Shown: positions 8,454 through 63,779 of the stretch, piece by piece | How the letters are laid out: each line of letters opens with the position of its first letter | How positions within the stretch are numbered: the stretch's first letter is position 1 | NCBI GenBank assembly: GCA_016180645.1 | Contig: JACPAV010000024.1 | Span: 62,001-126,000 of the forward strand | Direction: 5' to 3' | DNA from: Nitrospirota bacterium | Lineage (GTDB): Bacteria; JACPQY01 | Length of the DNA: 64,000 nt | The notes under the pieces: generated by a model | Database searches by the model: none | Told to the model about the DNA's origin: nothing | The model's input: the letters and a program-made list of their open reading frames with translations, nothing else | Position numbers and translations under genes: made by a program

Positions 8454-8503
8454 TTTTGTTCGAAAGTCTTGTGCATTCAGGGCATTGGCACGAACGGGGG
8501 TGA

Positions 8504-8518
8504 TGGTACGGCCGTTGC
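8504..8518 (+). promoter_or_regulatory. sigma54 -24/-12 promoter of the giant protease gene
   Basis: TGGTAC-GGCCG-TTGC, 60 bp before ATG 8578. Confidence 0.65.
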
Positions 8519-8577
8519 GCTTGAGAGGGCATGGCGACGAGATGCGATCCTTGTTCGTATCCCACGAGGAGGTGCCC

Positions 8578-14500: not shown

Positions 14501-17500
14501 CGACGATTGCAGCGGACGGCACGATCTACGTCACGGGCCGCGACAACGGAAACCTGTTCGCCTTCAGTGCTGACGGCTCGCTCAGGTGGAAATTGGGCCT
14601 GGGGGATCCGTACTTGGAGTCCTCGCCCGTCATCCTCTCCGACGGAACGCTGGTGTTTGGCGGCTCGATGAGCGCCGTGTACGCCGTCTTCCCGGATGGA
14701 AAACTTCGATGGAAGTTCACACCGCAGGGGGTGACCGCCGTGCCGTCCCCTACCTCGCTCACGGAATCGGCGCGCCTATCCGGAACCGAACCGGCCGCCG
14801 CAACCGACAGCTTCTACTCCTCGCCCGCCCTGGACGATCAGGACCGGATCTATATCGGCGGGTTTGGCGGCACCCTGTACGCGCTCTCGCCGGCCGGGGA
14901 CCTTCTTTGGAGCTATGGCGCCGGTGCTCCGATCGTCGGTTCGCCGACCGTTACCCCAGACGGGCGCGTGGCCGTCATCTCCACCAAGGCCGTCTCCACC
15001 GATGTAAATCGGCTTCATGTCGTAGACCTCAACGGGAAGCAGGTCTGGAAGAAGGATCTCGGCGGCGTCAAAACCAACGAATCGGTTCCGGCGGTGGACG
15101 CACAGGGGCGCATCGTTGTGAACGACAACAACGCACTCCTGGCCCTGGACGCGTCCGGCAGGGAGATTTTCAGATTTGATCCTGGCACGTCCTGTGATTC
15201 AGACACGGCGGTCGCCTCGCCCACGATGACGTCGGACGGCCGCATCCTATTCAAGACGCGTGCCTGCGGAAGCACGCGGAATCTGTACGCGATCAAGCCG
15301 GACGGCATCGTCGAATGGCAGTTGCCGGTGGAGGAAGACTTCGCCTATCGCAGGTGGGACTCGTCTCCGTCCGTAGGCGAGGACGGCACGATCTACCTCG
15401 TGGGCGGAATGACACTTGTCGCGATCTACGGCACGGGCACGAACCAAGCGCCGACCTGTGCGGCCACGGCCGATCCGACGAGCGGCGTGGAGCCTCTCGA
15501 TGTGAAATTTGCGGCGACGGCTTCCGATCCTGAGAAGGACCCGCTTACGTACGCGTGGGACTATGGCGATGGCTCGACGGGAGCCGGCGCACAGGCAGCG
15601 CACAAGTTTGCGGCGGTCGGCACGTACGCAGCGGTCCTCACCGTCACCGACGCCCTCGGCGCGAAGTGCCAGGGCAGCGTCCAGATCACGGTAAACCCGA
15701 ACCGCGCGCCGGTCTGCGCAGCCTCCGCTACGCCGACCACCGGGGCCGTGCCTCTGGCCGCGTCGTTCCTCGGTTCCGCAACCGACCCGGATGGCGGAAC
15801 GCTCACCTATGCCTGGACCTTCGGCGACGGCTCCTCCGCGAACCTCGGTCAGACGCAGCACACCTACGCGGCCGTCGGTTTGTACAACGCGCAGTTCAAG
15901 GCGACCGATCCCCAAGGCGCCTCGTGCTCGAATACGGTGGCGATCGCCGCGAATCCGAATCGAAACCCCGTCTGCTCGGCGTCGGCGACTCCGCTCGCGG
16001 GCATTGCGCCGCTCTCTGTGGCGTTCAGCGGAACGGCCTCAGATGCCGATGGCGTGATCAAGGCCGTCCTGTGGACATTCGGTGATGGCTCAAGCTCAGG
16101 ATCGGCCCAATCGACGCACGCCTACTCGGTCCATGGCGCGTACACGGCCGAATTCCGGGCCGATGACGACAAAGGTGGCGTCTGCCATTCGACCGTGGGG
16201 ATTCAAGTCGACAAGCCCCCGAACAAGCCGCCGACGTGCTCGCTCTCGGTTTCACCCCAGAGAGGGAAATCTCCTCTGGCGGCCCAGTTCGCCTCCGCGG
16301 CGGCCGATACGGATGGTTCCATCGTGAGTTACGAATGGACATTTGGCGACGGCACGCCGGGATCGAACATCCAGAATCCATCCCACGCCTACATCCTCAT
16401 CGGCACCTTCACCGCCTCGCTGACCGTGCGCGACAATGAGGGCGCCCCGTGCATGGCCACCGGAACGGTGACCGTGCTGCCGCCCAACAAACCGCCTGCG
16501 GTTTCGATCCAGGCGGTACCGGAGAGAGGGCCGGAGCCTCTCTTGGTTCAGTTCAAGACCACCGCCTCCGATCCGGACGGAACAATCGTTTCGTATGCGT
16601 GGACGCTGGGTGACGGCGCAACCTCGACGGGCGTTGAGCCGTCTCACTCCTACCAGAACGACGGCGCCTACACGGCAACCCTCACGGTGAAGGACGACGA
16701 TGGCGCATCCGCCAGCGCGAGCGCCAAGGTCACGGTCGAGAGAGTGCTGATCCCGCCGACGTGTTCGGCTAACGCGACGCCGCTCAAGGGCCACGCGGCG
16801 TTGAACGTTTCCTTCAACGGTTCTGCGACGGATGCCGACGGATCGATTGTCGTGACAGGCTGGACTTTCGGCGATGGGACCAACGCTTTAGGGTCGCAGG
16901 TGAGCCACGTATATCCAGCGCAGGGAACTTACACCGCGGTCTTCAAGGCCACCGACAATGACGGAATGTCCTGCGACAAGATGCTGACGATCCTCGTCGA
17001 ACCGCCGAACAAGCCGCCGGTGGCGGTCATCTTCGCCGATCCCGTTAAAGGTTTCGCGCCGCTCGACGTGGGGTTCAAGGGTGATTCGAGCTTCGACACG
17101 GACGGAACGGTGGCCGCGTACGCCTGGGACTTTGCCGATGGAGCGACGGCCGCAACCGCGAAGGGTCCGCACTCGTTCACGAAAGATGGAGTCTTCAACG
17201 TGAAGCTCACCGTCACGGACGACGATGGAGCGACCGGCACCAGCACACTCTCCATCGAAGTCCTGGAGGGTGATCCGGGCGACCCCTACGTATGGCCGAT
17301 GTTCGGGGCGAGCGCGGGGCACACGAGCTACTCGCCCGCGATGCTGCCGGCCCACGTTCAGGCGGTGTGGAAGAGCGCGATTGGCAACGGCGGATTCGGA
17401 GGGACGGAGCTGAATGTGAAAGTCCTCGGCCCGGCGGTATCCGATGGGCTTCTGTTCACCACATCTCTGAATGAACTGGTGATGCAAGATGCCCTGACGG

Positions 17501-26114: not shown

Positions 26115-26975
26115 ATGGCGAACATGAATCCGCAGGAAATGATCGCGGCGCAGAGGGAAGAGTGGACCCGCGTGGCTCCGGCGTGGGAGAAGTGGGATGA
26201 GGTGTTCGATCGGAACACGTCGTTCGTCAACTACAGACTACTGGCGGAGGCCCGCCTTCGACCGGGCTACCGCGTCCTGGATCTTGGCTCCGGCACGGGC
26301 TACCCGGCGCTCTTGGCGGCCGAAGCGGTGGGCCCGACGGGATCCGTGATCGGCCTCGATCTCTCAGAAGCCATGCTGAACGTTGCCCGCCGTAAGGCGA
26401 ACGCCAAAGGCCTTGCCAATGTTGAGTTCAGAACGGCCGATGTGTGTGCGCTTGATTTCGATGACGGATCCATCGATGCCGTGACGAGCCGTTTTTGCCT
26501 GATGTTCCTTCCGGATGTTTCCAAGGCCGCAAGGGATATCGCGTGCGTGCTGCGACCGGGCGGATATGTAGCGGCCGCCGTCTGGTCGGCGCCCGAAAAG
26601 AATCCGATGACCTCCACGCCGATGGGTGTGCTCAGGAAAATGATGACGCTGCCCCCGCCCGATCCGAACCAACCGGGTATTTTCAGGCTGGCGAAACCGG
26701 GCGATCTCCGAGGGATCATGGAATCGGCCGGTTTGGAAGTGGTGTCGGAAGATGAGACCGAGGGGGAATCGTTGTTTGATTCGGTGGACGAATACTTTCA
26801 GGCCCTCATGGAGATTGCGGCGCCCCTCCAGACGCTGTTCGCGAAGCTCACCGCGGAGCAGCGGGGAACGGCGGAATCGGAGATCAAGCAGTTGATTTCG
26901 AAGTACCGAAGGAATGGCAACGTGGCGCTACCGACGGCCGTGCGAGTCGTCGCCGCTCGAAAGCGGCTGGTGTGA
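26115..26975 (+). CDS. Class I SAM-dependent methyltransferase (UbiE-like)
   Basis: VLDLGSGTG, GLDLSEAML, LRPGG motifs and a GGGAGG RBS. Confidence 0.9.
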   Translation: MANMNPQEMIAAQREEWTRVAPAWEKWDEVFDRNTSFVNYRLLAEARLRPGYRVLDLGSGTGYPALLAAEAVGPTGSVIGLDLSEAMLNVARRKANAKGLANVEFRTADVCALDFDDGSIDAVTSRFCLMFLPDVSKAARDIACVLRPGGYVAAAVWSAPEKNPMTSTPMGVLRKMMTLPPPDPNQPGIFRLAKPGDLRGIMESAGLEVVSEDETEGESLFDSVDEYFQALMEIAAPLQTLFAKLTAEQRGTAESEIKQLISKYRRNGNVALPTAVRVVAARKRLV

Positions 26976-27949: not shown

Positions 27950-28068
27950 TCTTGGCAGCGACCTACTCTCCCATCCACCTAAGGCGGATAGTATCATCGG
28001 CCCTGAGGAGCTTAACGACCGTGTTCGGAATGGGAACGGGTGTTTCCCCCTCGGCATGACCACCAAGA
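27950..28068 (-). rRNA. rrf: 5S rRNA, stand-alone gene
   Basis: The reverse strand contains the conserved CCCGTTCCCATTCCGAACACGG and GGGAGAGTAGGTCGCTGCCAAG segments. Terminal helix TCTTGG/CCAAGA. Confidence 0.95.
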
Positions 28069-28155: not shown

Positions 28156-31100
28156 CTAGGAATCTTTGCCCTTGAGCTTCAGCTTCTTGACCCAGATGGA
28201 GAGCTGGGAGCGATCTACCCCGAGATCGCGGGCGGCCTCGGAAATATTGTTCTCCGCGCGGCGAAGGGATTCGATGATCAGTTCCCTCTGGTACTCCAGC
28301 ACGGCGCTCTTGAGATTCTGACCTCTCCTCCGCCCCTGTGGCATTTCGGGAGTAGAAATGCCTTCGCCCTGGGCCAAGTCCTGGACGTCGATTTCGGCTT
28401 CACGCGCAACGACGTGTGCCGTCCGCAGGAAGTTTTCCATCTCACGGATGTTGCCGGGCCACGGCCGGCCCATGAGAGCGGACAGGGCGCGTTTGCTGAT
28501 CTTCTTGGGCGATTCCTTTTCTTCCACAGCGATCTGATCCAGAAAAGCGCGGGCGAGCGCGGGGATGTCCTCCCGCCGCTCACGCAAAGGCGGGATCTGG
28601 ATCCGGTACACGCCCAGGCGGTAGTAGAGATCTTCCCGGAACGTTTTCTCCGCCACAAGGGTTTTCAAATCGCGGTTCGTGGCGGCGATGATGCGAACGT
28701 CCAACTTTCTTTCGCGCGTGTCTCCCACCCGTCGTATGACGCCATCTTGAAGAACCCGGAGGAGTTTGACCTGGAGGGGGAGGGGCAGCTCCCCGATTTC
28801 ATCCAGGAACAGAGTTCCCCCTTCAGCCACTTCGAACAGGCCCGGTTTCTCCCGATCCGCCCCGGTAAACGCGCCCTTCACGTGTCCGAAGAGTTCGGAC
28901 TCGAAGAGATCCTGCGGCATCGCCCCGCAATTGACCGGCACGAACGGTTTGTCTTTGCGCGGCGAATTGAAATGGATGGCTCGGGCCGCCAGTTCCTTGC
29001 CCGTTCCGCTTTCCCCTTGGAGGAGGACGGGGACTCGACTCTCCACGGCCCGATCCACGGAGAGGAGGACGCGCCGGAGGGCCGGACTCGATCCGACGAT
29101 GCGTTCATACTTGTATTTCGGCTGTTCCTCGCGGATCAAGACACTGAGCTTTTCTTCGGCCTCCTCCAGCCGGGTTTCCTGTGAGGCCAATTGGTCCTTG
29201 AGTTTCCGATTCGCCTCCTCCAGTTGGTGGTTCAGCGTCTCAATCTGATCCTTGGAATCTTTCAGTTCACGAACCGTTTTTCTCAACTCGCGCTGGTCAC
29301 GCACGTTTTGAGCGATCAGTTGGGCCTTGTAGATCGCCACGGCGGCAAGTTCGCTCAGGACGGAAAGCAACGGGACGTCCTGCTCGGTGAAACGTCCCGC
29401 CTTCAGACGCGTGTCCATGTACAGGGCGCCGATGGCCTCGCCGCGCATGAAGAGGGGAACGGCAATGACGGAGCGGAGCTGGAGCTGGTAGATGCTGGCG
29501 GAATCCTTGAATCGCGGATCCTTCATGGCGTCCAGTGCGATGACGGGCTGGTGCGCTTCGAGCGTTTCCTGGGCAACGGTGAGAGAAAAGTTCTCCGCGG
29601 TGTCGCGGATGTCCTTCTTGTCATGGGACCGCGCGACGCGGACCACCGGCGCACCGTTTTCCATGAGGAGGAGAAAACCGCGCTCGGCATCGGTAAACGC
29701 CAGGAGGGAATCGACGATGTCGACAAGAAGATCCTGGAGATCCAGGGCCGAATTGATCTTGCGTGCCACATCAAGGAGGTTGAAGGCCTCCGTGTCGGTC
29801 CTCCGGCGGTGGAGTGGGGGGTCAGCCGACGGTTGGGGTGGATCGGCGGGTGTGACCGTGGGTTGGACCGGAACCTGCCGTGTTCCACCGGGTTCCGGTT
29901 CCTGACCTTTGGATGGATTCCCGGCGGACCCGCCGATCACGATTCGTGACGACATGAGGGTTTTGCCTTCGGATGACATAGGGACCTCCTCGGACGGTTC
30001 GGAAGAAGATGGGGAAGAGACTCGCTCCGGTGGCGTGAGAGCCGACCACTCGCGAACGATCTTTTCCCGGATCAACGGGTCTTTCGAGGGCGACTGATCC
30101 AGCGTCGTGAGGGCCTTTTCGAAGCAGGCACGGGCCGAGCGTGGATCGGTCTGTCGAAGAGACTTGCCCTTGGCAAAGAAGAATCGAATTTGAACGAGGG
30201 GGGGCGATGCCTCCCCCACCTGCGGCTCGCACGCGGCCAACTCCGAGTGGGCTTCGCGGAGGAGGCCGCGGTCGGCGCGGATCTCGGCCAGTTTGAGACG
30301 GGAGAGCATGAGATCGTCGGGCATGCCGAGCCGCTGAAACAGGTCGATCGCCTGCTCGCACTCCCGTTCCGCACGGTTGAGATGGGATCGCTGCTCGAAG
30401 CATTCAGCCAGTTCGAGCCGGAGAGCGGCCTCGAGGTGGATCATCCGCAGATCTTGAGCCAGGCGAAGGGCCTCTTCATACGCATTCTCAGCGCCGGCCA
30501 TGTCCCTCGCCTGCGCCCGGAGGATGCCGAAATTGTACAGCGCGCGGGCCTCATCCGTCCGGTCTGAAATTCTTCGGAAAATCGTGAGGGCTTTCTCGTA
30601 ATGCTTCGATGAAACGTCGATGTTCTGGGCTTTGTGGAAGGCGACGCCGAGGTTGACGTAGGCGAGCGCCGTTCCCCGAAGATCGCCGATTTCCTGGCTA
30701 AGGGTAGCGCACGATTGGAACAGGGAAACGGCTTCATCCAGGCGCCCCTGGGCGAGATGGGCGACGCCCAGTGAATTCAGCGCGAGGGCGTGACGGGCCG
30801 AGCGTCCGGAACCCTTCGTCTCCTCCGCATTCCGGTGAAAGAGGGGAATGGCGGACTCCATCTCTCGCCGGTAGAGATGAAACTTGGCGAGGACATGGCG
30901 AAAGGCCAGCCGTTCATCATCCGGGCATGACTTGCCTCCCGACAGATAGGAACGGCAAAGGGCGGCGGCCTCATCGTATTGGGATTGTTCCAGAAGGATG
31001 TCGGCAAGAAGCGCATCCAGGACCGGCAGCCAACGGGAATCGAGAGCCAGTCTGGACGTGATTCCCCGGATCGCCTCGGCGGCTTCGTTCAAACGCCCCC

Positions 31101-33495
31101 CATGTCGGTAGGCGTGGGCGAGCCCCGAGGTGAGTTCGGCGCGCGCATCGAGCCCTTCGGCTTGATTGAGGAGTTGCCGGAAAGTTTCAATGGCATCCGG
31201 AAAGCGGGCGGTGGCGGATTGGGCCTGGGCCAGGAGCGTTCGGTATGTGATGGCGTCGGCCGGGGGCAAAGGCGCCGCGGCGTCGGCGTGCTCTTCGAGA
31301 AAGCGCAGGGCGGGTCCCGGCTGATGGAGCCGGACGAGGAGTTGGAGGTCCGGACGCGCAAGGGCGAACGCCTGGGCCGGTTTCCCGGCGAGGAAATATT
31401 CATGGGCCCGATCGAAGGCGGACATGCGACCATCCGCGTTGGTCTCGTTCCGACCGAAGGAGAGCTGGGTCCAGCGTTCCGCGAGCTGGAGGTGTTTGGC
31501 GGCCCGCTCCGACGGATTCATTTGCGACAGGACGGCTTCGCGGCGCACGTCACTCGCGAGCTGGGAGCCCTCCGGCCCCTGGCGGACCCAGCCGAGATCT
31601 TGAGTCCGGCGCAGATGGCTCGTGCCCAGGCCACTCAGGAGAGGATCGAGGGATTCGAGATCCTCGGCCATCATCCCTTTGGGTGACACACAGAGCCATT
31701 CCAGAATCGTCCTTTCCGGTTTGCTCAACCGCTTGAGTTCTTCCGCGAACCAGACAGAGAGATTGAGCGTGGCGTCGAGCCGGCTCCAATCCAACGTCTC
31801 GAGTTGGGCTTCGAGGTCCTCCCCGGGCCGGAGGACCTTTTCCACCAGGAGCCTGAGATACTCGACGAACAGCCCCGGCACGCCCTCCGTCTTGTCCATC
31901 AGGCGCCTCAGAAGACGGCCGGGTGGATCGGCGACTCCGAGGAGGGATTTCAACACGCCTCCGGCTTGCTCGTCGCTCCACGGCCCCAGCATCAGGGTCC
32001 GATCCAGAACGAGCCGGATCGGAAGCGCTTCCTCCGATGCGCTTGTCACCAAGAGGAAGGTGGAGCCGTCGGCCTTCGTATTCGGGTCTTCACCCAGTGT
32101 CATGCAGTAGTAGGACAGGAGTTCGCGGACATCCGCCTTCCGATCCAGGTCATCCACCAAGACGATGAGATTTCGCCGGACCGTGAGGACACTTAGCGCG
32201 GCGGCGAGTTTCTCGAGGAATTGGACGTGCTGCATGTCGGGAGTGGTTTCGAGCGACGGGGGATCGGGGGCCTCCTTGAATGTTTCCGGGAGGAGGGCCT
32301 TGAGATAGGGTGCATAGGGCCGCAGGGCAGCCGCATCCTGCGTTACCGGCAGCCTCTCGAACAATTCCGGAAGACCTGATTTCTGATCGGCGAGCGAAAC
32401 GACCCTTTCATCGCGGAGTTCGGCCCATCGCCGGAACTCATCGAGAAGTTCGGATTTTCCCGTCTCCGGCCGACCCACGATGGCGCCCACGAAGAGGGGC
32501 TGGAAGGCGTTTCGGCATTCGTCGAACCATGCGCACATCTCTTTCAAGGGCGACTCCAATCCCGAGAGCATCGCCGTGGCCTTGTCCGGCAACCGCTGAC
32601 GGCCGGGTTCGAGGGCGTAGCGCGTGGAGGAGCGAGCGTTGATCCGAGAAATCACCTGGTTGGCCGACCAGAAACGGTGCCTTGGATTGGGCTCCAGAAG
32701 GGTGACCAGGATTTCCCGGAACAAATCCGGCACGTCGGCGCGGAAGGCTTCGGGTGGAGGAGGCACTCGCCCGACGGTCTCCCGTACGAGTTCCTCGATG
32801 CTCTTTCCGGTGGAGCCGGCACTCGATGCCGAATCGTCCTCCGGGATTTTCTTGAAGGTCCGGCTGAACATGACCGCGAGCGAGTAGAGGTCGGCACGAC
32901 CGTCCACCTGCTCGCCGAGGGCCACCTCCGGCGCGATATACGGGAACGTTCCTGCGATCAGCCCCTTTTGATTGAACCGGCTGATTTCATCGGCGATACC
33001 GAAATCCAGAATTTTGACTTGAGGGGGCATGCTGCCGGAGCCGGGGTTGACGAGCACGTTGGAAGGCTTGATGTCGAGATGAATGACGCCTTGGCGGTGG
33101 AGAAATTCGAGGCCTTGGAGAATCTGGACGAAGGCTTCCCATCGCGAAGGCCACGAGGCATCCCGGAGAAACTGAGAGAGGCTCGGCCCAGCCACGAGGT
33201 CTTCCGTGAGGTAATGGGTGCCTGTCGCATCATCGATCAGCAGGTCATGCACTTGGACGAGCGCCGGATGATGGAGATGGGAGAGGAGCCGCATCTCTTT
33301 GCGAAAAGATTCGTCCCCCCACTCGGTAACGTCCTTGAAGAACTCCTTGACGGCCACCTCGCGATTGAGCGTGCGATCGAACGCCCGATGGACGCGACCG
33401 AATTGTCCTTGGCCGAGGCTGTTCAATATTTCGAGCCGGCCGAAGAGCATTGTACCCATCTGGATGGATGATAACCGGACCGTTGTGTATTGCAA
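28156..33495 (-). CDS. Ser/Thr kinase - P-loop NTPase - TPR - GAF - sigma54 AAA+ activator - Fis HTH fusion
   Basis: Kinase motifs GQGQFG, VAVK, HLDIKPSN, DFG, APE. GRPETGKS. TPR helices. GESGTGKE, GAFTGA, LFLDEIG, FREDLYYRL, WPGNIRE and a C-terminal HTH. The start may be ATG near 33459. Confidence 0.9.
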   Translation of the reverse strand: MQYTTVRLSSIQMGTMLFGRLEILNSLGQGQFGRVHRAFDRTLNREVAVKEFFKDVTEWGDESFRKEMRLLSHLHHPALVQVHDLLIDDATGTHYLTEDLVAGPSLSQFLRDASWPSRWEAFVQILQGLEFLHRQGVIHLDIKPSNVLVNPGSGSMPPQVKILDFGIADEISRFNQKGLIAGTFPYIAPEVALGEQVDGRADLYSLAVMFSRTFKKIPEDDSASSAGSTGKSIEELVRETVGRVPPPPEAFRADVPDLFREILVTLLEPNPRHRFWSANQVISRINARSSTRYALEPGRQRLPDKATAMLSGLESPLKEMCAWFDECRNAFQPLFVGAIVGRPETGKSELLDEFRRWAELRDERVVSLADQKSGLPELFERLPVTQDAAALRPYAPYLKALLPETFKEAPDPPSLETTPDMQHVQFLEKLAAALSVLTVRRNLIVLVDDLDRKADVRELLSYYCMTLGEDPNTKADGSTFLLVTSASEEALPIRLVLDRTLMLGPWSDEQAGGVLKSLLGVADPPGRLLRRLMDKTEGVPGLFVEYLRLLVEKVLRPGEDLEAQLETLDWSRLDATLNLSVWFAEELKRLSKPERTILEWLCVSPKGMMAEDLESLDPLLSGLGTSHLRRTQDLGWVRQGPEGSQLASDVRREAVLSQMNPSERAAKHLQLAERWTQLSFGRNETNADGRMSAFDRAHEYFLAGKPAQAFALARPDLQLLVRLHQPGPALRFLEEHADAAAPLPPADAITYRTLLAQAQSATARFPDAIETFRQLLNQAEGLDARAELTSGLAHAYRHGGRLNEAAEAIRGITSRLALDSRWLPVLDALLADILLEQSQYDEAAALCRSYLSGGKSCPDDERLAFRHVLAKFHLYRREMESAIPLFHRNAEETKGSGRSARHALALNSLGVAHLAQGRLDEAVSLFQSCATLSQEIGDLRGTALAYVNLGVAFHKAQNIDVSSKHYEKALTIFRRISDRTDEARALYNFGILRAQARDMAGAENAYEEALRLAQDLRMIHLEAALRLELAECFEQRSHLNRAERECEQAIDLFQRLGMPDDLMLSRLKLAEIRADRGLLREAHSELAACEPQVGEASPPLVQIRFFFAKGKSLRQTDPRSARACFEKALTTLDQSPSKDPLIREKIVREWSALTPPERVSSPSSSEPSEEVPMSSEGKTLMSSRIVIGGSAGNPSKGQEPEPGGTRQVPVQPTVTPADPPQPSADPPLHRRRTDTEAFNLLDVARKINSALDLQDLLVDIVDSLLAFTDAERGFLLLMENGAPVVRVARSHDKKDIRDTAENFSLTVAQETLEAHQPVIALDAMKDPRFKDSASIYQLQLRSVIAVPLFMRGEAIGALYMDTRLKAGRFTEQDVPLLSVLSELAAVAIYKAQLIAQNVRDQRELRKTVRELKDSKDQIETLNHQLEEANRKLKDQLASQETRLEEAEEKLSVLIREEQPKYKYERIVGSSPALRRVLLSVDRAVESRVPVLLQGESGTGKELAARAIHFNSPRKDKPFVPVNCGAMPQDLFESELFGHVKGAFTGADREKPGLFEVAEGGTLFLDEIGELPLPLQVKLLRVLQDGVIRRVGDTRERKLDVRIIAATNRDLKTLVAEKTFREDLYYRLGVYRIQIPPLRERREDIPALARAFLDQIAVEEKESPKKISKRALSALMGRPWPGNIREMENFLRTAHVVAREAEIDVQDLAQGEGISTPEMPQGRRRGQNLKSAVLEYQRELIIESLRRAENNISEAARDLGVDRSQLSIWVKKLKLKGKDS

Positions 33496-38681: not shown

Positions 38682-41600
38682 ATGAACGACCCGAAATCGG
38701 TTTCGAGTAGCCCTAATCTTGACAATAACGATCATAATAAGAGCGACGAATCACCCTCTCGAAGAACTTTTCTCCAATTGATGGCCGGCGCGGGCGGATC
38801 GCTCGCGTTCATGACGAAAGACGCGTGGGGAAGCGTGTTCACCTTCTTCGAACCGTTCGACACGCCGAATCCACTCGCGCAGTACCCGAATCGCGGATGG
38901 GAATCGGTGTACCGCGATCTCCTTGCCTACGACAGCACGTTCAGTTTTCTCTGCGCCCCGAACGACACGCACAACTGCCTCCTCCGCGCCTACGTGAAGA
39001 ACGGCGTCATCACGCGCCTCGGTCCCACCTACGGTTTCGGCAAGGCCGTGGACCTCTATGGAAACAAAGCATCGCACCGTTGGGAGCCGCGCTGCTGCCA
39101 GAAGGGACTCGCGCTCGTCCGCCGGTTTTACGGCGACCGCCGATGCAAATATCCGCTCGTGCGGGCCGGATTCCGGCAGTGGGTGATGGACGGATTCCCC
39201 CGCGATCCGGAAACCGGCCGAGTACCGTCCAAGTACGTCAATCGGGGGCGCGACGGCTGGCTCCGAGTGTCCTGGGATGAAGCGTTTCAATTCTCCGCGA
39301 AAGCGATGGCCAACATTGCGGAGACATACTCGGGAGAGCAAGGCGTGAAGCGGCTGAAGGCGCAGGGGTACGACGAGGCCATGGTCGAAGCCGTCGGTGG
39401 AGCGGGCGTGCAGACGATCAAGTTCCGCGGCGGAATGGCCGCCCTCGGGGCCACGCGCATTTTCGCGCAGTACCGTCTGGCCAACAGCATGGCCCTCCTC
39501 GATGCCAAAATCCGAAACGTCGGTCCCGACAAGGCGATCGGCGCGCGCGGGTGGGACAACTACTCGTGGCATACGGATCTCCCGCCGGGCCATCCCATGG
39601 TGACCGGCCAGCAGACGGTGGACTGGGACCTCGTGTGCGTGGAGAACGCGAAGCTCGTCATCGCCTGGGGAATGAATTGGATCGCCACCAAAATGCCGGA
39701 CGCCCACTGGTTGACCGAGGCTCGCCTCAAGGGAACCAAAACCGTGGTGATCGCGTGCGAATACAGCGCCACGGCGAACAAGGCGGATGCCGCACTTGTC
39801 GTTCGTCCCGGCACCACTCCCGCTCTGGCCCTCGGACTGGCCGGCGTAATCCTCAAAGAGAAGTTGCACGACGAGGAGTACATTCGCCGCTACACCGACC
39901 TTCCGTTCCTCGTCCGCATGGACAACCTGAAACTCCTCCGCGCGGCGGAAGTCTGGCCGGATCGGAAAGCGTCGACGCTCCGGAACTACGTGTCCGTCGA
40001 GGCCTCGGGCGCGAAGTCGCCTCCGAATCACCTTCAGCCCACTCCGATCGTCCCCGAAGCCCTCCGGAACGAATGGGGCGATTACGTCGTATGGGACGAG
40101 ACGGCCAAGGGGCCGAAGGCCGTCAGCCGGGACGAATACGGAAAGAAAGCGGCCGCGCTCAAGCCGGCCGTGTCGGGAGCGTTCACGGTGAAACTGGCGT
40201 CCGGGGAAAGCGTGGCGGTGAGAACGGTATTCGATCTCCTGTCCGAGTATGTCGAGAAGAACTTCAACGTGGAGCAGACGAGCGAAATCACCTGGGCGCC
40301 GAAGGAGGGGATCGAATGGCTGGCGCGGGAGATCGCGAAGAACAAGGCCGCCACGCTGTTCGCCGTGGGCATGGGCCCGAACCAGTTTTTCAACAATGAT
40401 CTCAAGGACCGCGCGATCTTCTTCCTCGCCGCCCTCACGCGGAACATCGGGCTCATCGGCGCGAACGTGGGCAGTTTCGCGGGCAACTATCGCGCCGCCT
40501 TCTTCAACGGCCTGCCGCAGTTCATCGCGGAGAACCCCTTCGACCTGGAGCTGGACGGCGCCAAGCCATCCCGCCCCAAAGGCTACTCGAAAGCCGAATC
40601 GGTCCATTACTTCAACGACAGCGAGCACGTCCTCCGCGCGGGCAAGACGCTGATTACGGGGAAGAGCCACATTCCTACGCCCACCAAGGCGATCCACGTC
40701 ACGAACAGCAACTCCCTCATCGGCAATGCAAAGGGACACTACGAATCGGTGATCAACGTGTTCCCGCGCGTGGAGTTCATCGCCGTGAACGAGTGGTGGT
40801 GGACGGCCTCCTGCGAGTACGCCGACGTCGTCTTCCCCGTCGATTCCTGGGCGGAGTTCAAATATCCGGACCTCACCATTTCCGTGACCAATCCGTTCCT
40901 CTACGTTTATCCCCGGTCGCCGCTCCCGCGAATTTTCAACACGCGATCCGATCTGGAAGTGGCCGCCGGACTCTCGAATGCGATGGCGGACGTGACGGGC
41001 GATTCGCGGTTCCGCGACATGTGGAAGTTCGTGAACGAGGGCACCGCGGAGCCGTACCTCCAACGCGTGCTCGATCACAGCAGCGCCACGCGCGGATACA
41101 AGATGAACGACATCGAAAAGAAAGCGCAGGAGGGCGTCCCATCGATTCTCCTGAGCCGCACGTATCCGAAAGCCGCCGGATGGGAGCAGTCGAACGAAGA
41201 CAAGCCTTGGTACACGAAATCCGGCCGGCTGGAGTTTTATCGCGACGAACCGGAATTCATCGACAGCGGCGAGAACATGCTGGTCTACCGGGAGCCGGTG
41301 GATTCCACCTTCTACGAGCCGAACGTCATCGTGTCGGCGCCGCACCCGGCCCTCAAGCCGAAATCCCCGGAGGATTATGGCGTGAATCGCGCCGAGTTAT
41401 CCGGCGACAAACGCCAAACCCGCCACGTGGTCAAGCCCTGGAGCGACGTCAAGAACACGCAGCATCCGCTTATGAAGGAAGGGCACCGGTTCATCTATCA
41501 CACCCCCAAGTATCGTCACGGCGCACACACAACGCCGGTGGATACGGACGTCGTGGCCGTGTGGTTCGGCCCGTTCGGGGACGTGTACCGGCACGACAAG

Positions 41601-42209
41601 CGCAAGCCGTTCGTGGTCGAGTCGTTCGTCGACATCAATCCGCTCGACGGCAAGGAACTGGGAATTGAGGATGGGGATTACGTGTGGATCGACGCGGACC
41701 CGGCGGACCGGCCCTATCGCGGTTGGAAGAAGGGTACCGAGGAATACAAGTTGGCGCGGCTCCTGTTGCGTGCGCGGTACTATCCCGGTACACCGCGCGG
41801 CGTGGCGCGAACCTGGCACAACATGTTTGGATCGACCTACCAGAGCGTGAAGGGGCACGAGACGAATCCGACGGGCTTGGCGAAGGGTCCGGAGACGGGC
41901 TACCAGTCCATCTACCGGTACGGCAGCCACCAGAGCTGCACGCGCGGCTGGCTCAAGCCGACGTGGATGACCGACTCGCTCGTGCGAAAGGATCTCCTGG
42001 GCCAGAAAATCGGGAAGGGTTTCATGCCGGACGTCCACTGCCCCACCGGCGCGCCGCGTGAAAGTTTCGTCAAGATCACCAAGGCCGAGGACGGTGGGTA
42101 CGGAGGCGAAAAACTCTGGAAGCCTGCGAAGGACGGGTTCCGGCCCGGATATGAGAATGATTCCATGAAATCCTTCTTGCAGGGCGGTTTCGTCAAGGTG
42201 AAGGCGTAG
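38682..42209 (+). CDS. Periplasmic type II DMSO-reductase-family molybdoenzyme alpha subunit (NxrA/NarG-like)
   Basis: Tat motif SRRTFLQ, FS0 motif CAPNDTHNC...PRCC, WHTD Mo-ligand Asp, DLYGNKA and TPKYRH segments resembling Nitrospira/anammox-type NxrA. Confidence 0.85.
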
Positions 42210-42217
42210 GCGAAGCG

Positions 42218-43345
42218 ATGCCGAAGGTGAAGAATTGGCAGATTCGGCGCGAGATGGAGTACCCCTACGAGGAGTCGCGCCCCAAGAAGCAGGTCGCCTA
42301 CATTTTCGATACCAACAAGTGCATCGAGTGCCAGACGTGCTCCATTGCCTGCAAGACGACGTGGACCTCCGGGAAGGGCCAGGAGTACATGTTCTGGAAC
42401 AACGTCGAGACGAAGCCGTACGGGTTTTATCCGCTCGGGTGGGATGTCAAAATCCTGGAGAAGCTCGGTCCGCAGGAGTGGAACGGCGGCGCTTACGCAG
42501 GGAAAACGGTTTTCGAAGCGGCGGCCCCCGGCGAACGCGTGTTGGGATATCAGCCGCAAGAGGAGGACTACGCCTCACCGAACGTCGGCGAAGACGATGT
42601 ATCCGCGGTCGTCGAAAAGGGCGCGTTCTTTCAGGGGATCCACAAGACGTGGATGTTCTACCTCGCGCGGATCTGCAATCACTGCACGTATCCCGCGTGC
42701 TTGGCGTCGTGCCCGCGGAAGGCGATCTACAAGCGTCCGGAGGACGGCGTGGTATTGATCGATCAGTCGCGGTGCCGCGGCTACCGTGAGTGCGTGAAAG
42801 CCTGCCCGTACAAGAAAGTGTTTTTCAATCTCATGACACGGGTCTCGGAGAAGTGCATCGCCTGTTACCCGCTTCTGGAACAGGGGAAGCAGCCGCGATG
42901 CGTGGAAACGTGCATCGGGAAGATCCGACTCCAAGGCTGGCTCAGCAAGCCGGGCGAGGAGAAGAAGGACAATCCGATCGACTATCTCGTTCGCATCAAG
43001 AAAATCGCCGTGCCGCTTTATCCTCAGTATGGATTGGAGCCGAACGTCTACTACATTCCACCGATCCACGTTCCGCGCGAATTCCTGCTCCAGATGTTCG
43101 GACCGGCGTTGGACCCGGCGGTCGCGGCCTATCGCGCCGCGAAGGACGACAAAGATCTGCTCGCGGCGCTCCTCTTGTTCGGATCATCGGACCAGACCTT
43201 GGGATCGTTCCGGCGCGAGGGAGAGATGGCGGTGGGACTCAACACGAACGGTCAGGAGGTGGTGCGTGTTCCTCTCAAGGAACCGGTCTACATCCGCCCG
43301 TATTTCGACAAGGAAAACAATGTCTACCGGCACAATATTTCGTAA
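42218..43345 (+). CDS. Fe-S beta subunit (NxrB/NarH-like)
   Basis: [51 protein letters not shown] and CIAC...CVETC motifs. Confidence 0.9.
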
Positions 43346-44222
43346 CGTCGCAGGGACGATCCTCGCGTTGTTCATGGTGGCGCCCGCGCCGATGGCGGGC
43401 GATTTCGAGGTGGAATCGAAGAACATTGGACCCAAGCCCGTTCCGTCCGGTCCGGCCGACGACGCATGGGGTTCGGCGCCGGAAACAGAGCTTGCGCTTC
43501 TGCCGCAGAACATGATCGCGCCCTCGCTGATCGAACTCACCATCCCGTCGCTGAAAGTCCGCAGCCTCCATAACGAGACGGACATCGCCATCCGCCTGCA
43601 GTGGCCTGACAGGACGCGTGACAGCATCCAGGACATCGGCCGTTTCTCGGATGGTTGCGCGATCGAATTCCCGATCGGCCCGGCGGACCCTTCGCCGTTC
43701 ATGGGTCACGCGTCGCCCGGTCCGGGCCAGCCGGCAGGCCGCGTTCACATCGTTCACTGGAAAGCCACGTGGCAGGATGACATGGACCTCGGATTTCAGG
43801 GGGTTGCGAAGATCTATCCGAACGGATGGTGGGACGTTTACCCCTTTCTGAACGGCGCGTATCCGTTCCTGACGGAGGACAGCCTGACGGGCCGACAGAC
43901 CATGAACTACTCGCCCGGAACGTACGTCGGCAATCCGGTCTCCCTGATGAAGCGAAAGGTGCCGGTCGAGGAGTTGATCGCGGAAGGGTTCGGGACGCTT
44001 ACCACACAGCCGCGGCAGGACGCGTCCGGCCGGGGCGAGTGGAAGAGTGGTGCGTGGACGGTCGTTCTCATCCGCCCTCTTGTGTCGAAGGACGCGATGG
44101 ACAGCGTCCTTCCCTTTGACGGCGAATCGAAAATCGCGTTTGCGCTGTGGAACGGATCCGATGAGGACCGCGGCGCGCGCAAGCACTACTTCCCATGGAT
44201 TCCACTCAAGATTCAGAAGTAG
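43320..44222 (+). CDS. Heme-b gamma subunit (EbdC/NxrC-like)
   Basis: AAGGA RBS, signal peptide, [20 protein letters not shown] (Met ligand), [15 protein letters not shown]...RG.RK (Lys ligand). Confidence 0.8.
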
Positions 44223-44947
44223 GCCGGCCTGCGGTCGGCGGCATCGGTCCGGTCGGCCATGACGAGGTTAACCGCTGGATCGTTTGCGCCGATGTGTATC
44301 GCTTCCTGGCGGGGTGCTTCCGCTATCCCGAGACGGATGTGATGGCGACGAATCTTTCAGTGCTGGCGCTGGGGCTGGAGAAAATACAGACCGTTCCCAA
44401 ATCCGTCCGAGCCCACATGCATCGGATGGCCGGCCTGCTGAATGGGGTGGGGGGACAGGATCTCCGTATCGAGCACGAACGCTTGTTCGGGACAAACCCG
44501 CTTTGTTCACCCTATGAGACTTCGTATTGCCCGGCGCGGAAGGAACGGATCCTTGGAGATTTGGCGGGCTTCTATCGGGCGTTCGGACTCCTGCCGGTCG
44601 CGGCTCGACCCGACATGCCGGATCACATTTGTGCGGAGATGGAGTTCATGTCAGTCGTCCTCCTCAAGGCGGCGTATGGATTGCGCCGAGGCGCCCGCGA
44701 AATGTCGGAAGTGTGCTTGAACGCCCACCAATCCTTCCTCGCCGATCACGTCGGCCGCTGGTACGCGGCCTTTGCGGATGCAGCGGAGGAACGGACGGAC
44801 CTGGACGTATTCCGGAGCACAGCCGATCTGCTTCGTGAGTGGGTCGAGACCGATCTTCGCCTCTCCCACGTGAGCGCTACCTCCTACTCAGCCTCCCCTA
44901 CCATCCCCTTCGGCGATTCCTCCCCCGCCTGCCCGATCGTTTCCTGA
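44195..44947 (+). CDS. TorD/DmsD/NarJ-family maturation chaperone
   Basis: PYETSY, GFYRAFG, PDHICAEMEFM and FLADH motifs. Confidence 0.85.
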   Translation: MDSTQDSEVGRPAVGGIGPVGHDEVNRWIVCADVYRFLAGCFRYPETDVMATNLSVLALGLEKIQTVPKSVRAHMHRMAGLLNGVGGQDLRIEHERLFGTNPLCSPYETSYCPARKERILGDLAGFYRAFGLLPVAARPDMPDHICAEMEFMSVVLLKAAYGLRRGAREMSEVCLNAHQSFLADHVGRWYAAFADAAEERTDLDVFRSTADLLREWVETDLRLSHVSATSYSASPTIPFGDSSPACPIVS

Positions 44948-60334: not shown

Positions 60335-61266
60335 TTATTGGGGTGTGAGGCGGGCTGAGTATAGGGTGTGTTGGATCGGCAAGTCGGCGGGATAGTCGAT
60401 CTTGCGCCGGGCTGCTTCGGTCATGAGGTGGTACGCGACCTCCACATCCAGGGTGTGGGATCCCGGCGCTCCGGCCACTCGTTCGGCGAATCTGAACGAG
60501 CGTTCCTTACCGGGGTGGAGCCGGTTGTCCCGAAGTTCGAGAATCATCGGACGCCAGAGGATCCATCGCTTCAGGGTATGAGTCTGCGTTCTGACCATGC
60601 TTCCGTCGGCTGCGTTCCGAAGCGTGAACGTGACCGTCACAAAGCGGTCGGGATCACCGGTCGGGAAAGTGTGACCTGCTCCTACGTTTGACAATTTCAA
60701 TTCAACGTCGATCGTGCCTCTCCCATTCTCAAACCGGCTGCGATCTTCCGGTTCGATGCTCACGGCCTTCCGGACCATGTCCCCATCATGCCCGCCTCTC
60801 CACAGGTGGCGTTTGGAAGGTCTCACCGGGCCGCCGAATGCCACGGGGCGCTCGACGGCAGGCATGTGACACTGGATGCAACCGTATCCCTGAACGGGGT
60901 CGTCCCTGACTTCCGCATAGGTTCCGCACGGCGGGCCGATGTAGAACATACCGGGGTCCTTCCCTTCCACCTCGTGGCAACGGCGGCACACACCGCCGCC
61001 ATCGAGAAATGAGGCATCCTGTCGAACCGGGTGAGGCGCCGCCGAATCCGCGTACGGGCCAACGATAACGCCGTCTTGAACGTGGCAGATAGCGCACGTT
61101 CCGAAACCGTGAAGATTCTCAGCGGGCCGAACAGGCGATAGCCCAGCGAACCCATCGACGCAACCAGCAGGGCGATCACCCCGATGGCGGCCTGACCGTG
61201 TGCGGACCATCCAACCCCGATCACCTTCCCCCACGGCGTTGTTGAATTCGGCCGGCTCCACAACAT
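60335..61266 (-). pseudogene. Multiheme cytochrome c, frame-broken near 61105
   Basis: CAICH, CRRCH, CIQCHM and GH.FPTG lie in one frame. The N-terminal TM anchor (AIGVIALLVASMGSLGY) lies in another frame. Confidence 0.6.
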
Positions 61267-61279
61267 CTTCAACGCAGCA

Positions 61280-61801
61280 CTAAGGCTTGAAGGAGAACGC
61301 ATCCAACGTGAGTGGCGGTTCCTTTTCGCCGGCGAATTCGAAGTGGCCGCGAACGGAAAGCGGCGATGGCCCCCGAGAGTGCGGGTCCGCCAGCAACTCG
61401 TGCAGCACTTCGTTTTGCGCCAAGCTCAAGCGTTGTTCACTGCCTGAGACGACGAAGAAGAACGAGAAACCTTGTCGGAGGAGGATTCCCTCGGCCTCGA
61501 TCCGCACCGCGCCGACTTTCTGCCCGGCCTTCTCTACCAATTGTCTTATCCTGGGGAAGTCGACGGGTTTCCCCGGCTTCGGGATGATTTCGGCCTTCTG
61601 CTTCTTGAGACTCACGTCCACGCGGTCCACGGTCGGTAACTTGGCGAGAGCCCGACGGGCCCCCAGCGCGCAGAACGGTCAGGTCATGCCGAGGACCTCC
61701 ACCTCGATCCGCATGATCTCGGCGCGGGATGGGAGGGGAACCGCCACGACGCTCAGCACGGAAGCGATGAAGAACATCTTGAAAAGGTCTCGGGGTTTCA
61801 C
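61280..61801 (-). CDS. Exported HMA (MerP/CopZ-like) selenoprotein, GMT-U-PFC
   Basis: An in-frame TGA at 61681-61679 joins track ORFs 61679..61873 and 61280..61630 at the first Cys position of GMxCxxC. A SECIS-like hairpin follows. Signal peptide ends SRA. Confidence 0.8.
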
Positions 61802-61814
61802 CGGTCGTCCCTTC

Positions 61815-62696
61815 TCAAAAGAGGGCGTACGCACCGGCGCGAATCTTCCGGTCCTGAGAAAGTTGTGTCCCATTCAAGTTCTCCCATAGTGGAAGTTGGT
61901 ATGAAATCTCGAAGGTGAAACGATCCATCAGGAAATACTGGATCCCGGGGGCCGCGAAGAGGGAGTTCCCACCCGAGTCGGTTATGGCCTGGTTGAAATG
62001 CCTTGACCGACCGGCGACCCCGCCGTTCAGTTCAAGCATGACATAGAATTCGGATCGCGCTTTTTCACTCGACAGCGCGAGGTATTCCGCGGAAAGGTTG
62101 ACGCCCACGACATGCCCTTGTCGCACCCCGCTGTTCGACCCGTTGAGTTGCCCGGCGGGTCCCGCGTAGATTCCCGCCTTCTTGTGTATGTACTGGAAGG
62201 GCAGGTCCCAGATGAAATCGTAGGAGCCGCTGCCGATGTTGTCTGCGCCCGTCGGGACTTTTACCCCGGCAGCCGGCCCGAATTGTAGGCGTGTCGAGGG
62301 GCCCAGACGTTTGAAGACATCCGGGGAATAGCGAGCGAGGAACACGGCTTCGCCGATTCCACTCGCCTCGCTGCTTGCACCGCTTGAATCGCGGGCTTCA
62401 GTTCGCACGTATGGAACAGCGGCCGCCAGGGTCAGATCTTCATTGACCGGGAATGCGCCCATGAGGCCGATGACCTGGGCTTCCATCTTGGGCCGGCTGC
62501 CGGGGATGTCCCCGGTGGTCCCAAGAAGCGTTTCCTTCCGAATGATGTCGGTGAAAACCCGCGCGAGTCCGACACCGGAAAAGAGCGTCTGGGCCGCCGA
62601 GCCTTGAATCGGCAAAGCGTGTGCCGTCGCCGCCATCGTAACCACAGCCCCCATCAGGAGCCCCAAAACGCGGGCCGGCCATTGGACGGATCTCAT
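61815..62696 (-). CDS. Outer-membrane 'transporter' beta-barrel (MetA-pathway/CopB-like)
   Basis: Signal peptide (AHA), SGIGE, GVKVPTG, GSGSYD, SGG..LF.APGIQ motifs and a C-terminal Phe. Confidence 0.7.
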   Translation of the reverse strand: MRSVQWPARVLGLLMGAVVTMAATAHALPIQGSAAQTLFSGVGLARVFTDIIRKETLLGTTGDIPGSRPKMEAQVIGLMGAFPVNEDLTLAAAVPYVRTEARDSSGASSEASGIGEAVFLARYSPDVFKRLGPSTRLQFGPAAGVKVPTGADNIGSGSYDFIWDLPFQYIHKKAGIYAGPAGQLNGSNSGVRQGHVVGVNLSAEYLALSSEKARSEFYVMLELNGGVAGRSRHFNQAITDSGGNSLFAAPGIQYFLMDRFTFEISYQLPLWENLNGTQLSQDRKIRAGAYALF

Positions 62697-62744: not shown

Positions 62745-62939
62745 TCAACTCCTCTCTTTGGTTTTTCCTGAGAAGATCCAGGCCGCGCCGATCAGGCCGA
62801 CGGCCGTGAAGAGGCCGAGGCTCAGGAGACCGCTCGCGCCGTCGCGGGGGCAGAATGCGCCGCAGGCCCACGCCGTTCCGGCGTCCGCCAGAACGCCCGA
62901 AGCGGCGGCCCATGCCGTTGCTTTCACCATGAATTCCAT
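62745..62939 (-). CDS. Small exported/membrane protein with CGAFC motif
   Basis: GGAGGTG RBS, signal-like AWA-CGAFCP, C-terminal TM segment and basic tail. Confidence 0.6.
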   Translation of the reverse strand: MEFMVKATAWAAASGVLADAGTAWACGAFCPRDGASGLLSLGLFTAVGLIGAAWIFSGKTKERS

Positions 62940-63076: not shown

Positions 63077-63664
63077 TCAGCCGCATCCGCACGCACCGCC
63101 TCCGTCTTTCTTGGGAGGGTTCTCCGACCGTGGGGCACAGCATTCGGATACGTCGTTTGACGACCGTTCCGACGGCGCTTCGGTTTGGGACATAGCCTTT
63201 TGGACAACTTGTTTCACGTTGCCGAGGCAGCAAGCGCCTTGTGGATTAAGCTCTTCGCAGCGGTCCAACCCCTGACGGCATTTTTCGGCGATAGAGTCGA
63301 GCGCCCCGGATTTGCCCGTCCGCCGGACTTCCTCCTCGATGCTCCTAACGGTGTGCTCAAAGCAGTAGCAGACGGTCCTGGAATCTCCCGTCGATTTCTG
63401 AAACACGGGAACCTTGATGTCCCGGGCAACGAACCGGATGCCGTCGGCTTCGTGGAAATAGACGATTTCGCAAGCTCCGCCCTTGCAGAACCGATAACCG
63501 CCGGAACCGTTGAGGCACTTTAATGCGGCCTTGGTGAGCAAGGAAACAAGAGTGATCGTCTTGACCTTCCGCCCTTGGGTCCCGCAGGCGGGACAACGGT
63601 CCGAGATCACCCGGGTCGGTTCCGAAACGGATCGGTGGGGCGCGGTGTCTTCAGGATTCTCCAT
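63077..63664 (-). CDS. CopZ-type zinc-binding / BFD-like [2Fe-2S] metallochaperone
   Basis: CPACG, FC.G..CEIVYF, VCYCF and C...NPQGACC motifs, as in the N-terminal domain of Archaeoglobus CopZ; Cys-rich tail. Confidence 0.8.
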   Translation of the reverse strand: MENPEDTAPHRSVSEPTRVISDRCPACGTQGRKVKTITLVSLLTKAALKCLNGSGGYRFCKGGACEIVYFHEADGIRFVARDIKVPVFQKSTGDSRTVCYCFEHTVRSIEEEVRRTGKSGALDSIAEKCRQGLDRCEELNPQGACCLGNVKQVVQKAMSQTEAPSERSSNDVSECCAPRSENPPKKDGGGACGCG

Positions 63665-63779
63665 GGCGATCCCCACTATTGTTCCGGCTCATGATCGAGA
63701 AGAAACCCAAGAGGAGAAGCATTCCGCCCCCCACGACGCAGCAAGCCAACCCTCCGCCGGACAGTGCTTCGAGATTCAT
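63651..63779 (-). CDS. 42-aa membrane peptide with CC motif (below the ORF-track cutoff)
   Basis: MNLEALSGGGLACCVVGGGMLLLLGFFSIMSRNNSGDRHGES*, overlapping the start of the next gene. Confidence 0.45.
   Translation of the reverse strand: MNLEALSGGGLACCVVGGGMLLLLGFFSIMSRNNSGDRHGES

Follow-up and report, generated by a model that had tools for sequence, protein, structure and literature searches.

Proteins of the heavy-metal-associated (HMA) type in which selenocysteine (Sec, U) replaces cysteine have already been described. A table of a 2026 review includes a cation-transporting P-type ATPase with a UxxC motif and a metal-binding protein with a UxxU motif (NF041115), and a table of the 2008 Global Ocean Sampling (GOS) selenoproteome has a row headed 'Mercuric transport protein MerP'. 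Sec acting as a heavy-metal ligand in other families is dealt with in a preprint by Haft. The element described here is located in 64,000 nucleotides (nt) of DNA from a Nitrospirota bacterium (assembly GCA_016180645.1, contig JACPAV010000024.1, positions 62,001 to 126,000 of the forward strand). This whole stretch is referred to as the window, and all coordinates are positions in it. The gene spans 61801..61280 on the minus strand, and probably encodes a genuine selenoprotein, a periplasmic chaperone of soft metals in which the UGA at codon 41 is read as Sec.

When TGA is read as U, the frame is open for 173 codons, from a GTG (61801-61799) to a TAG (61282-61280), and is interrupted solely by the TGA at 61681-61679. 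The tract GGC ATG ACC TGA CCG TTC TGC (61690-61670) encodes G-M-T-U-P-F-C. This string, and the HMA frame continuing past it, had been pointed out in the original prediction, which left the strand unstated; both are confirmed on the minus strand. The GTG is found 13 nt past the stop codon of the upstream gene, and a Shine-Dalgarno-like GAAGGGA lies 6 nt on its 5' side. TGA is the commonest normal stop in the window (16/30 genes), so that a global reassignment of the code does not explain the codon.

The product is organized as MKPRDLFKMFFIASVLSVVAVPLPSRA / EIMRIEVEVLGMT-U-PFCALG..., corresponding to a signal peptide, an HMA domain and about 70 more residues. Residues 1-27 (61721..61801, minus strand), judged from their sequence and from the homologues, make up a predicted signal peptide of the Sec export type, in which no lipobox Cys is seen on inspection. 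The N-termini of the aligned homologues are likewise hydrophobic and end in A-x-A-like sites, and residues 3-19 form a helix in the structural model. The HMA domain, a ferredoxin-like beta-alpha-beta-beta-alpha-beta unit, occupies approximately residues 28-100 (61502..61720, minus strand) and is recognized by Pfam PF00403 (34.7 bits against a gathering threshold of 24.8, E 2.4e-8, profile positions 3-61 of 62). The remaining portion, approximately residues 101-173 (61283..61501, minus strand), is a beta-rich domain common to the family, to which no Pfam or NCBIfam model corresponded in profile searches.

In protein databases the gene is stored as two proteins, P0015 (64 amino acids (aa), ending in GMT) and P0002 (111 aa), so that the splitting by automated annotation anticipated in the original prediction has indeed occurred. 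Database records place each of the two fragments on 4 contigs. On the opposite strand the entire HMA gene is overlapped by an open frame of 200 aa (61287-61889, plus strand), an artefact of GC-rich DNA which could be called in place of the gene. The locus is an example of how a gene may be lost in annotation, being kept as two unrelated 'hypothetical' fragments with an antisense open reading frame (ORF) competing for the same DNA.

An exhaustive phmmer search of 1.84 billion representative proteins gave 1378 hits at E <=0.001, 150 of which were listed. From these, 34 homologues of 146-200 aa were picked by length and span, and aligned with the window protein (alignment A1). They are 20-30% identical to it, and the whole architecture is common to all: a signal peptide, the motif G-[ML]-x-C-P-F-C-A-x-G, invariant glycines at positions 93 and 105, and a nearly invariant one at 152, the last two in the C-terminal domain. 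Homology runs on in one frame on either side of the TGA, and extends to the C-terminus. The most conserved block of the alignment, G-M-x-[C/U]-P-F-C-A-x-G, is the one flanking the TGA. The TGA itself (61679..61681, minus strand), proposed as Sec41 and first ligand of a U-P-F-C metal site, is aligned with a Cys found in at least 90% of family members. This Cys is present in 33/34 aligned homologues, the exception, P0113, lacking both Cys of the motif. None of the 34 has an in-frame TGA. Selenoproteins have been recognized by the presence of at least two Cys homologues and of a TGA/Cys pair (PMC1088965); the window gene features such a pair, with conserved residues on both sides. The TGA thus falls at the first metal-binding Cys of the HMA motif, as had been claimed from the sequence of the window.

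Family members score below every curated HMA-type cut-off of NCBIfam. ESM-Atlas clusters around one of them (P0007) are denominated 'Heavy-metal-associated domain-containing protein', and Acidobacteriota is their commonest phylum. A tblastn search of plasmids returned 8 records and no full-length member of the family; in each record similarity is confined to the HMA domain (36-47% of the query).

The AlphaFold2 (AF2) model of the read-through protein, built with the family alignment as input, has a mean pLDDT of 93.8 and a pTM of 0.83. The standard HMA topology is recognizable in the succession of strand 29-37, helix 42-53, strands 58-64 and 69-74, helix 82-91 and strand 95-110. U41 immediately precedes helix 42-53, and together with C44 flanks the start of this first helix. 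The second domain is beta-rich in the model. Searched with Foldseek, the HMA domain resembles MerP (1osd, TMt 0.82) and CopZ (6ff2, TMt 0.87), as well as Atx1 and CCS, the matches to MerP, CopZ and Atx1 spanning TMt values of 0.73-0.87; the metals bound by these neighbours are Cu(I) and Hg(II). The C-terminal domain has a loose fold likeness to NlpE (2z4i). Pfam, alignment, AF2 and Foldseek results hence bear out the HMA fold, the export signal and the C-terminal extension proposed in the original prediction.

Members of the family carrying TGA were sought by scanning 185,579 species genomes with the degenerate pattern G-[ML]-x-TGA-P-F-C-A-x-G. The scan returned 19 loci, the number of chance matches estimated by hand beforehand being about 17. 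On translation, 17/19 loci turned out to be chance matches in unrelated frames or genes. Locus L011 (2369-2397, plus strand), from a Mycobacterium metagenome-assembled genome (MAG), reads G-C-G-M-A-[TGA]-P-F-C-A-T-G and features a CxxxCxxC radical-SAM motif, presumably RlmN-like. It is unrelated to the HMA family, and its in-frame TGA probably reflects an error or a pseudogene.

L003 and L010, two loci of one unclassified MAG, are true homologues with a TGA in the same column as in the window gene. Both encode a signal peptide and the motif G-G-M-A-U-P-F-C-A-S-G, followed by about 145 open codons. Compared with the family profile, the L003 protein is matched over 150 columns and both domains (hhalign probability 99.2%, E 1.8e-19); its identity to the window protein is 24%. 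Between the two genes, identity amounts to 71% at the DNA level and 69% at the protein level. Each carries the hairpin CCUCC-GGUCU-GGAGG, starting 10 nt past the UGA, plus a bulged lower stem. The longest run of identity between them (26 nt, the next measuring 18 nt) starts 6 nt past the TGA and spans the hairpin; from the second Cys of the motif through the hairpin 8/8 codons are identical, against 72/124 (58%) of all same-residue codons. The letters of the GGUC loop are those of the Escherichia coli fdhF element, which was fetched and folded for comparison. The family of exported proteins with an HMA and a C-terminal domain very probably contains genuine Sec members, and the window gene would be a third, independent one. 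When six-frame ORFs of the window and of all the loci were searched by hmmsearch with the family profile, in which the window sequence itself is included, only these three TGA genes were retrieved, and no Cys paralogue. Both kinds of homologue envisaged at the outset are therefore on record, those with Cys in the column and, in another organism, those with TGA and a conserved hairpin.

L003 (9827-10546) and L010 (25-561) are paralogues sharing an identical ...DDGWF C-terminus. In both loci a gene encoding an NHL-repeat beta-propeller protein is found downstream on the same strand, followed by one for an uncharacterised protein of 310-327 aa (309 aa in L010). Further downstream in L010 come a gene for a membrane protein of the DoxX/MauE-like kind and, in opposite orientation, one for a metal regulator of the MerR family; the best scores of this regulator are with MerR (131 bits, below the cut-off of 150.85) and CueR (116.8 bits).

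A candidate bacterial selenocysteine insertion sequence (SECIS), the hairpin UGGGGGCCC-GUC-GGGCUCUCG (61645..61665, minus strand), is found past the TGA of the window gene. It has 9 pairs, G-U included, and a stability of -12.7 kcal/mol. Its GUC loop (61656-61654) begins 22 nt past the UGA, as noted in the original prediction; the stem begins 13-14 nt past it, and not 15. Hairpins with a contiguous stem of at least this stability and a G in the first two loop bases follow 0.9% of the 1806 TGA trinucleotides found on both strands of the window. In this region the peptide is ALGARRALA where the family consensus is AFGVEKxLK. When the peptides of all aligned members were recoded with one and the same codon usage, -12.7 kcal/mol was reached by 12% of the recodings of the window peptide, which ranks 1 of 35, and by 0-5% of those of the 34 Cys homologues. 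Recodings often keep the hairpin because the codons for ALGARRALA are GC-rich and mutually complementary. The window protein seems bent towards a stem, as in SECIS elements located in coding regions, although drift could also produce such a peptide.

The fdhF element requires G23, U24 and a bulged U17. In its general layout (comparison with NC_000913.3) it resembles the window hairpin, both being stem-loops that follow the UGA directly and have G-U in the apical loop, which is small. Counted from the UGA, the loop begins at 18 nt in fdhF (GGUC), at 22 nt in the window (GUC) and at 15 nt in L003 and L010 (GGUCU). Unlike fdhF, the window stem is a perfect GC-rich helix of 9 bp that lacks a bulged U and is closed by a loop of 3 nt. 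Measured as a contiguous stem, fdhF scores -2.1 kcal/mol. Fold z-scores against dinucleotide shuffles are insignificant for the segments of the window, L003 and L010, and for the validated fdhF SECIS as well (z = 0.09). Lack of thermodynamic distinction is therefore not evidence against a SECIS; these tests classify such elements poorly in both directions. The window hairpin is consistent with a SECIS, although on its own it counts as weak evidence for one. Of the SECIS assignment made in the original prediction, the position stands; an excess over what the peptide itself dictates does not emerge, as detailed below.

The HMA gene is part of a tightly packed minus-strand operon. A putative Fe-S metallochaperone of the CopZ N-terminal type, CC form, is encoded at 63077..63676 (NF047645, 102.4 bits against a cut-off of 100; Pfam zf_CopZ, E 2e-16). 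It falls below the cut-off of the sister family NF045877 (79.8 bits), which has Sec (CU) forms. A 64-aa ORF at 62745..62939, without Pfam hits, encodes a CGAFC motif and, after it, a hydrophobic helix; it is possibly a member of the operon, and may specify a small membrane protein binding metals. The gene immediately upstream of the HMA gene (61815..62696) encodes a protein of 293 aa that starts with a signal peptide and has Phe as its last residue. No Pfam or NCBIfam model matches it; ESM-Atlas feature hits to Phenol_MetA_deg (PF13557) clusters (score 0.99-0.98), to be taken as a lead only, suggest that it is probably an outer-membrane beta-barrel channel.

A disrupted gene for a multihaem c-type cytochrome (60335..61266, minus strand) starts 13 nt past the HMA gene. 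Its signal anchor, encoded from the ATG at 61266 to about position 61099, and its three CxxCH motifs, encoded from 61099 to 60335, belong to different frames. By comparison with the homologue P0154 (389 aa, 79% identity), residues 5-30 are aligned with 61176-61099 and residues 135-387 with the other frame from 61099 on, so that about 104 codons with two CxxCH motifs are gone. In the frame of the three-haem remainder a signal sequence is lacking. Homologues of this cytochrome, mostly from Nitrospirota, are typically 420-430 aa long. The broken fragment (P0155) is recorded on 4 contigs, so that the lesion appears genuine and not an isolated artefact.

The broken cytochrome bears on the explanation that best competes with Sec decoding, namely that the HMA gene is a pseudogene in a decaying operon. 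The TGC or TGT at the first metal-binding Cys codon would have mutated to TGA, translation would end after 40 residues, and the hairpin would be a by-product of GC-rich Ala, Arg, Gly and Leu codons. This explanation is regarded as doubtful, though several observations speak for it or otherwise detract from the selenoprotein. A single base change converts a Cys codon to TGA. The cytochrome gene next door, with its frameshift and a deletion of some 312 nt, is clearly inactive. The locus has therefore taken inactivating mutations, and the prior for the TGA being one more lesion is higher; the disruption was missed in the original prediction, and the case for a pseudogene is strengthened accordingly. 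The hairpin is equalled by 13% of 2000 synonymous recodings made with the codon usage of the window, and the minimum free energy of the 45-nt segment is average, being matched or beaten by 62% of the recodings. Whole-segment fold z-scores are positive for the hairpin segment. Rfam searches of 61500-61760 revealed neither a SECIS nor any other family, even at E up to 10. The local VEK to ARR departure from the family consensus could reflect relaxed constraint, and the hairpin is not alignable with that of L003 and L010, the loop distances (22 and 15 nt) and the sequences being different.

To these points others may be added, which concern the lineage and the genome. No orthologue closer than about 36% identity, whole or in fragments, was found either by phmmer or by a word-indexed protein search. 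Among the phmmer matches listed, the only near-identical ones are the window's own P0002 and P0015; these two were also the only proteins returned by the word-indexed search, made with the read-through protein on the 'near' and 'shorter' length classes. No close orthologue therefore attests to retention of the TGA under purifying selection in this lineage. The source genome is outside the collection of species genomes scanned, since the window's own sequence, which fits the pattern, was not among the loci returned. Genes for SelA, SelB, SelD and tRNA-Sec are missing from the 64-kb window, a result uninformative about the rest of the genome. Finally, at 61% GC long open frames arise easily, and the antisense frame is one of them.

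A pseudogene nevertheless implies a coincidence, and on this account Sec decoding is preferred. Among dozens of codons one step from a stop, a random nonsense mutation must have struck the one codon typical of Sec. The hit must also coincide with a strong hairpin with a G-U loop at the right distance, built from residues atypical of the family and resting on amino acid changes unique to the window member. The 173 codons have no second lesion, every residue invariant in the family is kept, and the family contains two further TGA members with a conserved hairpin. If UGA41 is read as Sec, all these features are expected, the one additional assumption being a Sec machinery in the organism.

The TGA could also result from a sequencing or assembly error, the true codon being TGC or TGT and the protein an ordinary CPFC member of the family. 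The reference collection apparently includes no close genome, and the deletion and frameshift in the neighbouring gene could in principle be assembly artefacts too. This is, however, very improbable. Both fragments bounded by the TGA, and the cytochrome fragment, are recorded on 4 contigs each; the features are reproducible, and a one-off read error is therefore unlikely. A substitution yielding exactly TGA at a column typical of Sec is in itself improbable. Scarcely credible is the existence of two separate small genes (for a 40-64-aa peptide and a 111-116-aa protein), or of a leaky UGA-C read independently of Sec by a near-cognate tRNA: gene callers predict both pieces, and C, which makes UGA-C a weak termination context, follows the TGA in the window gene, L003 and L010 alike, but that C is dictated by the codon of the conserved Pro, the break would fall inside the HMA fold, after strand 1 and before helix 1, parting the two metal ligands, and the window's own fragments are the only case in which a family member is known in two pieces.

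On the assumption that the gene encodes a selenoprotein, its expression and function may be sketched as follows. The stem-loop at 61665-61645 would act as a SECIS and recruit SelB carrying Sec-tRNA(Sec), and Sec would be inserted at UGA41. The pre-protein would be exported, and the signal peptide cut after SRA. The mature product would be a periplasmic metallochaperone of the HMA type, in which the HMA domain is fused to the beta domain specific to the family. In the two-coordinate site Sec41-Pro-Phe-Cys44, replacing the Cys-Pro-Phe-Cys of the family, Se(41) and S(44) would hold a soft ion in linear coordination. The ion, Cu(I), Hg(II), Ag(I) or another thiophilic species, would then be passed to, or received from, partners in the envelope. 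Hand-over of metal between envelope components is suggested by the apparent co-transcription of the gene with those for the putative outer-membrane channel, the CopZ-N-type metallochaperone and the broken multihaem cytochrome.

A wider scheme may be imagined, which as a whole is considered improbable. The family would be an unlisted selenoprotein family with rare U-P-F-C members, and its Sec form the periplasmic relay of a dedicated envelope pathway composed of the outer-membrane channel, the Sec-HMA chaperone, the multihaem cytochrome and the CopZ-N-type Fe-S protein. Its task would be the capture outside the cytoplasm, and perhaps the reduction, of a metal or metalloid of thiophilic character (Hg, Cu, Ag, possibly Se or Te species), selenium being chosen for a tighter or faster exchange of soft metals.

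Other features of the window were noted as well. Genes with one or two in-frame TGAs were sought by a crude screen, the overlap filter of which dropped the HMA candidate itself. Seven frames were obtained; two were translated, and neither looked like a selenoprotein by eye. An ArsM/UbiE-like methyltransferase is encoded at 26115-26975 (plus strand). The nearest NCBIfam models include the selenoprotein fusions ArsM_AhpD_UU and MTase_UXPK_star; the window copy has neither an in-frame TGA nor the extension of the selenoprotein fusions. Rfam identifies one tRNA-Leu and one 5S rRNA in the whole window. The latter (27950-28067, minus strand, 89 bits) is located between a gene for an SDR oxidoreductase and a very large gene for a kinase/sigma-54 activator, and no match to 16S or 23S rRNA was found anywhere in the 64 kb. 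The large gene (28156-33495, minus strand) encodes a 1779-aa fusion of an N-terminal Ser/Thr kinase to a C-terminal sigma-54 activator of the NifA/NorR type. An even larger protein of 3652 aa (8485-19443, plus strand) features a region similar to subtilisin/mycosin proteases and many BamB/PQQ-like beta-propeller repeats. A complete operon of the type-II DMSO-reductase family, coding for alpha, beta and haem-b gamma subunits and a chaperone, lies at 38682-44947 (plus strand); it is of the ethylbenzene-dehydrogenase/Nar-like kind, with scores below the equivalog cut-offs.

Compared with known systems, the window protein would share with NF041115, NF045683, the UxxC ATPase and the MerP row of the GOS table the presence of Sec in place of the first Cys of the HMA CxxC motif. 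The best NCBIfam hit is NF041115, 'metal-binding (seleno)protein' (E 3.5e-11), but at 43.1 bits against a cut-off of 95. The motif of that family is UxxU rather than U-P-F-C, and the window protein is about 100 residues longer. The distance from NF045683, a MerT/CopZ fusion-like selenoprotein, is larger (16.7 bits, cut-off 375). Unlike the catalogued HMA selenoproteins, the window protein carries a C-terminal beta domain of about 70 residues as well as a signal peptide, and includes no ATPase or MerT part. Similarity to MerP lies in the exported, single HMA domain with a GMxCxxC motif (1osd, rmsd 1.8 A over 68 columns). The score with TIGR02052 is 26.6 bits, against a cut-off of 92.55; the window protein has the additional C-terminal domain, and its motif is of the CPFC type, not typical of MerP. 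No merT, merA or merR is found among the genes of the window, and the parallel with mer operons is provided by the MerR-family regulator near the L010 homologue. The CopZ-type chaperones NF047957, NF033795 and NF033794 (35.6, 26.9 and 26.4 bits respectively, cut-offs 85-95) are small, cytoplasmic and made of a single domain; from these the window protein differs by its signal peptide and its second domain. The family of exported HMA proteins described above (approximately 160-190 aa) has the same architecture from end to end, 33 of its 34 aligned members having Cys where the window gene has TGA.

The terms 'HMA', 'periplasm' and 'signal peptide' do not occur in the searched passages of the 2026 review, where no periplasmic HMA form is mentioned. 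A description of the two-domain family as a selenoprotein did not turn up in literature searches, although the supplements of the papers could list it. HMA-domain selenoproteins are already known and curated, as NF041115, NF045683 and the tables of the review and of the GOS survey testify. The novelty is therefore smaller than implied by the original prediction, which overlooked both these catalogued proteins and the disrupted cytochrome, and the interpretation of which is supported in part. The practical gain is for the same reason modest; what would be new is a family not yet listed for Sec. If the assignment is correct, a family of periplasmic metallochaperones joins the short list of proteins in which Sec serves as a metal ligand and not as a redox catalyst, and UPFC and CPFC members provide a natural Sec/Cys pair, in which the effect of selenium on the binding and transfer of Cu(I), Hg(II) and Ag(I) could be measured.

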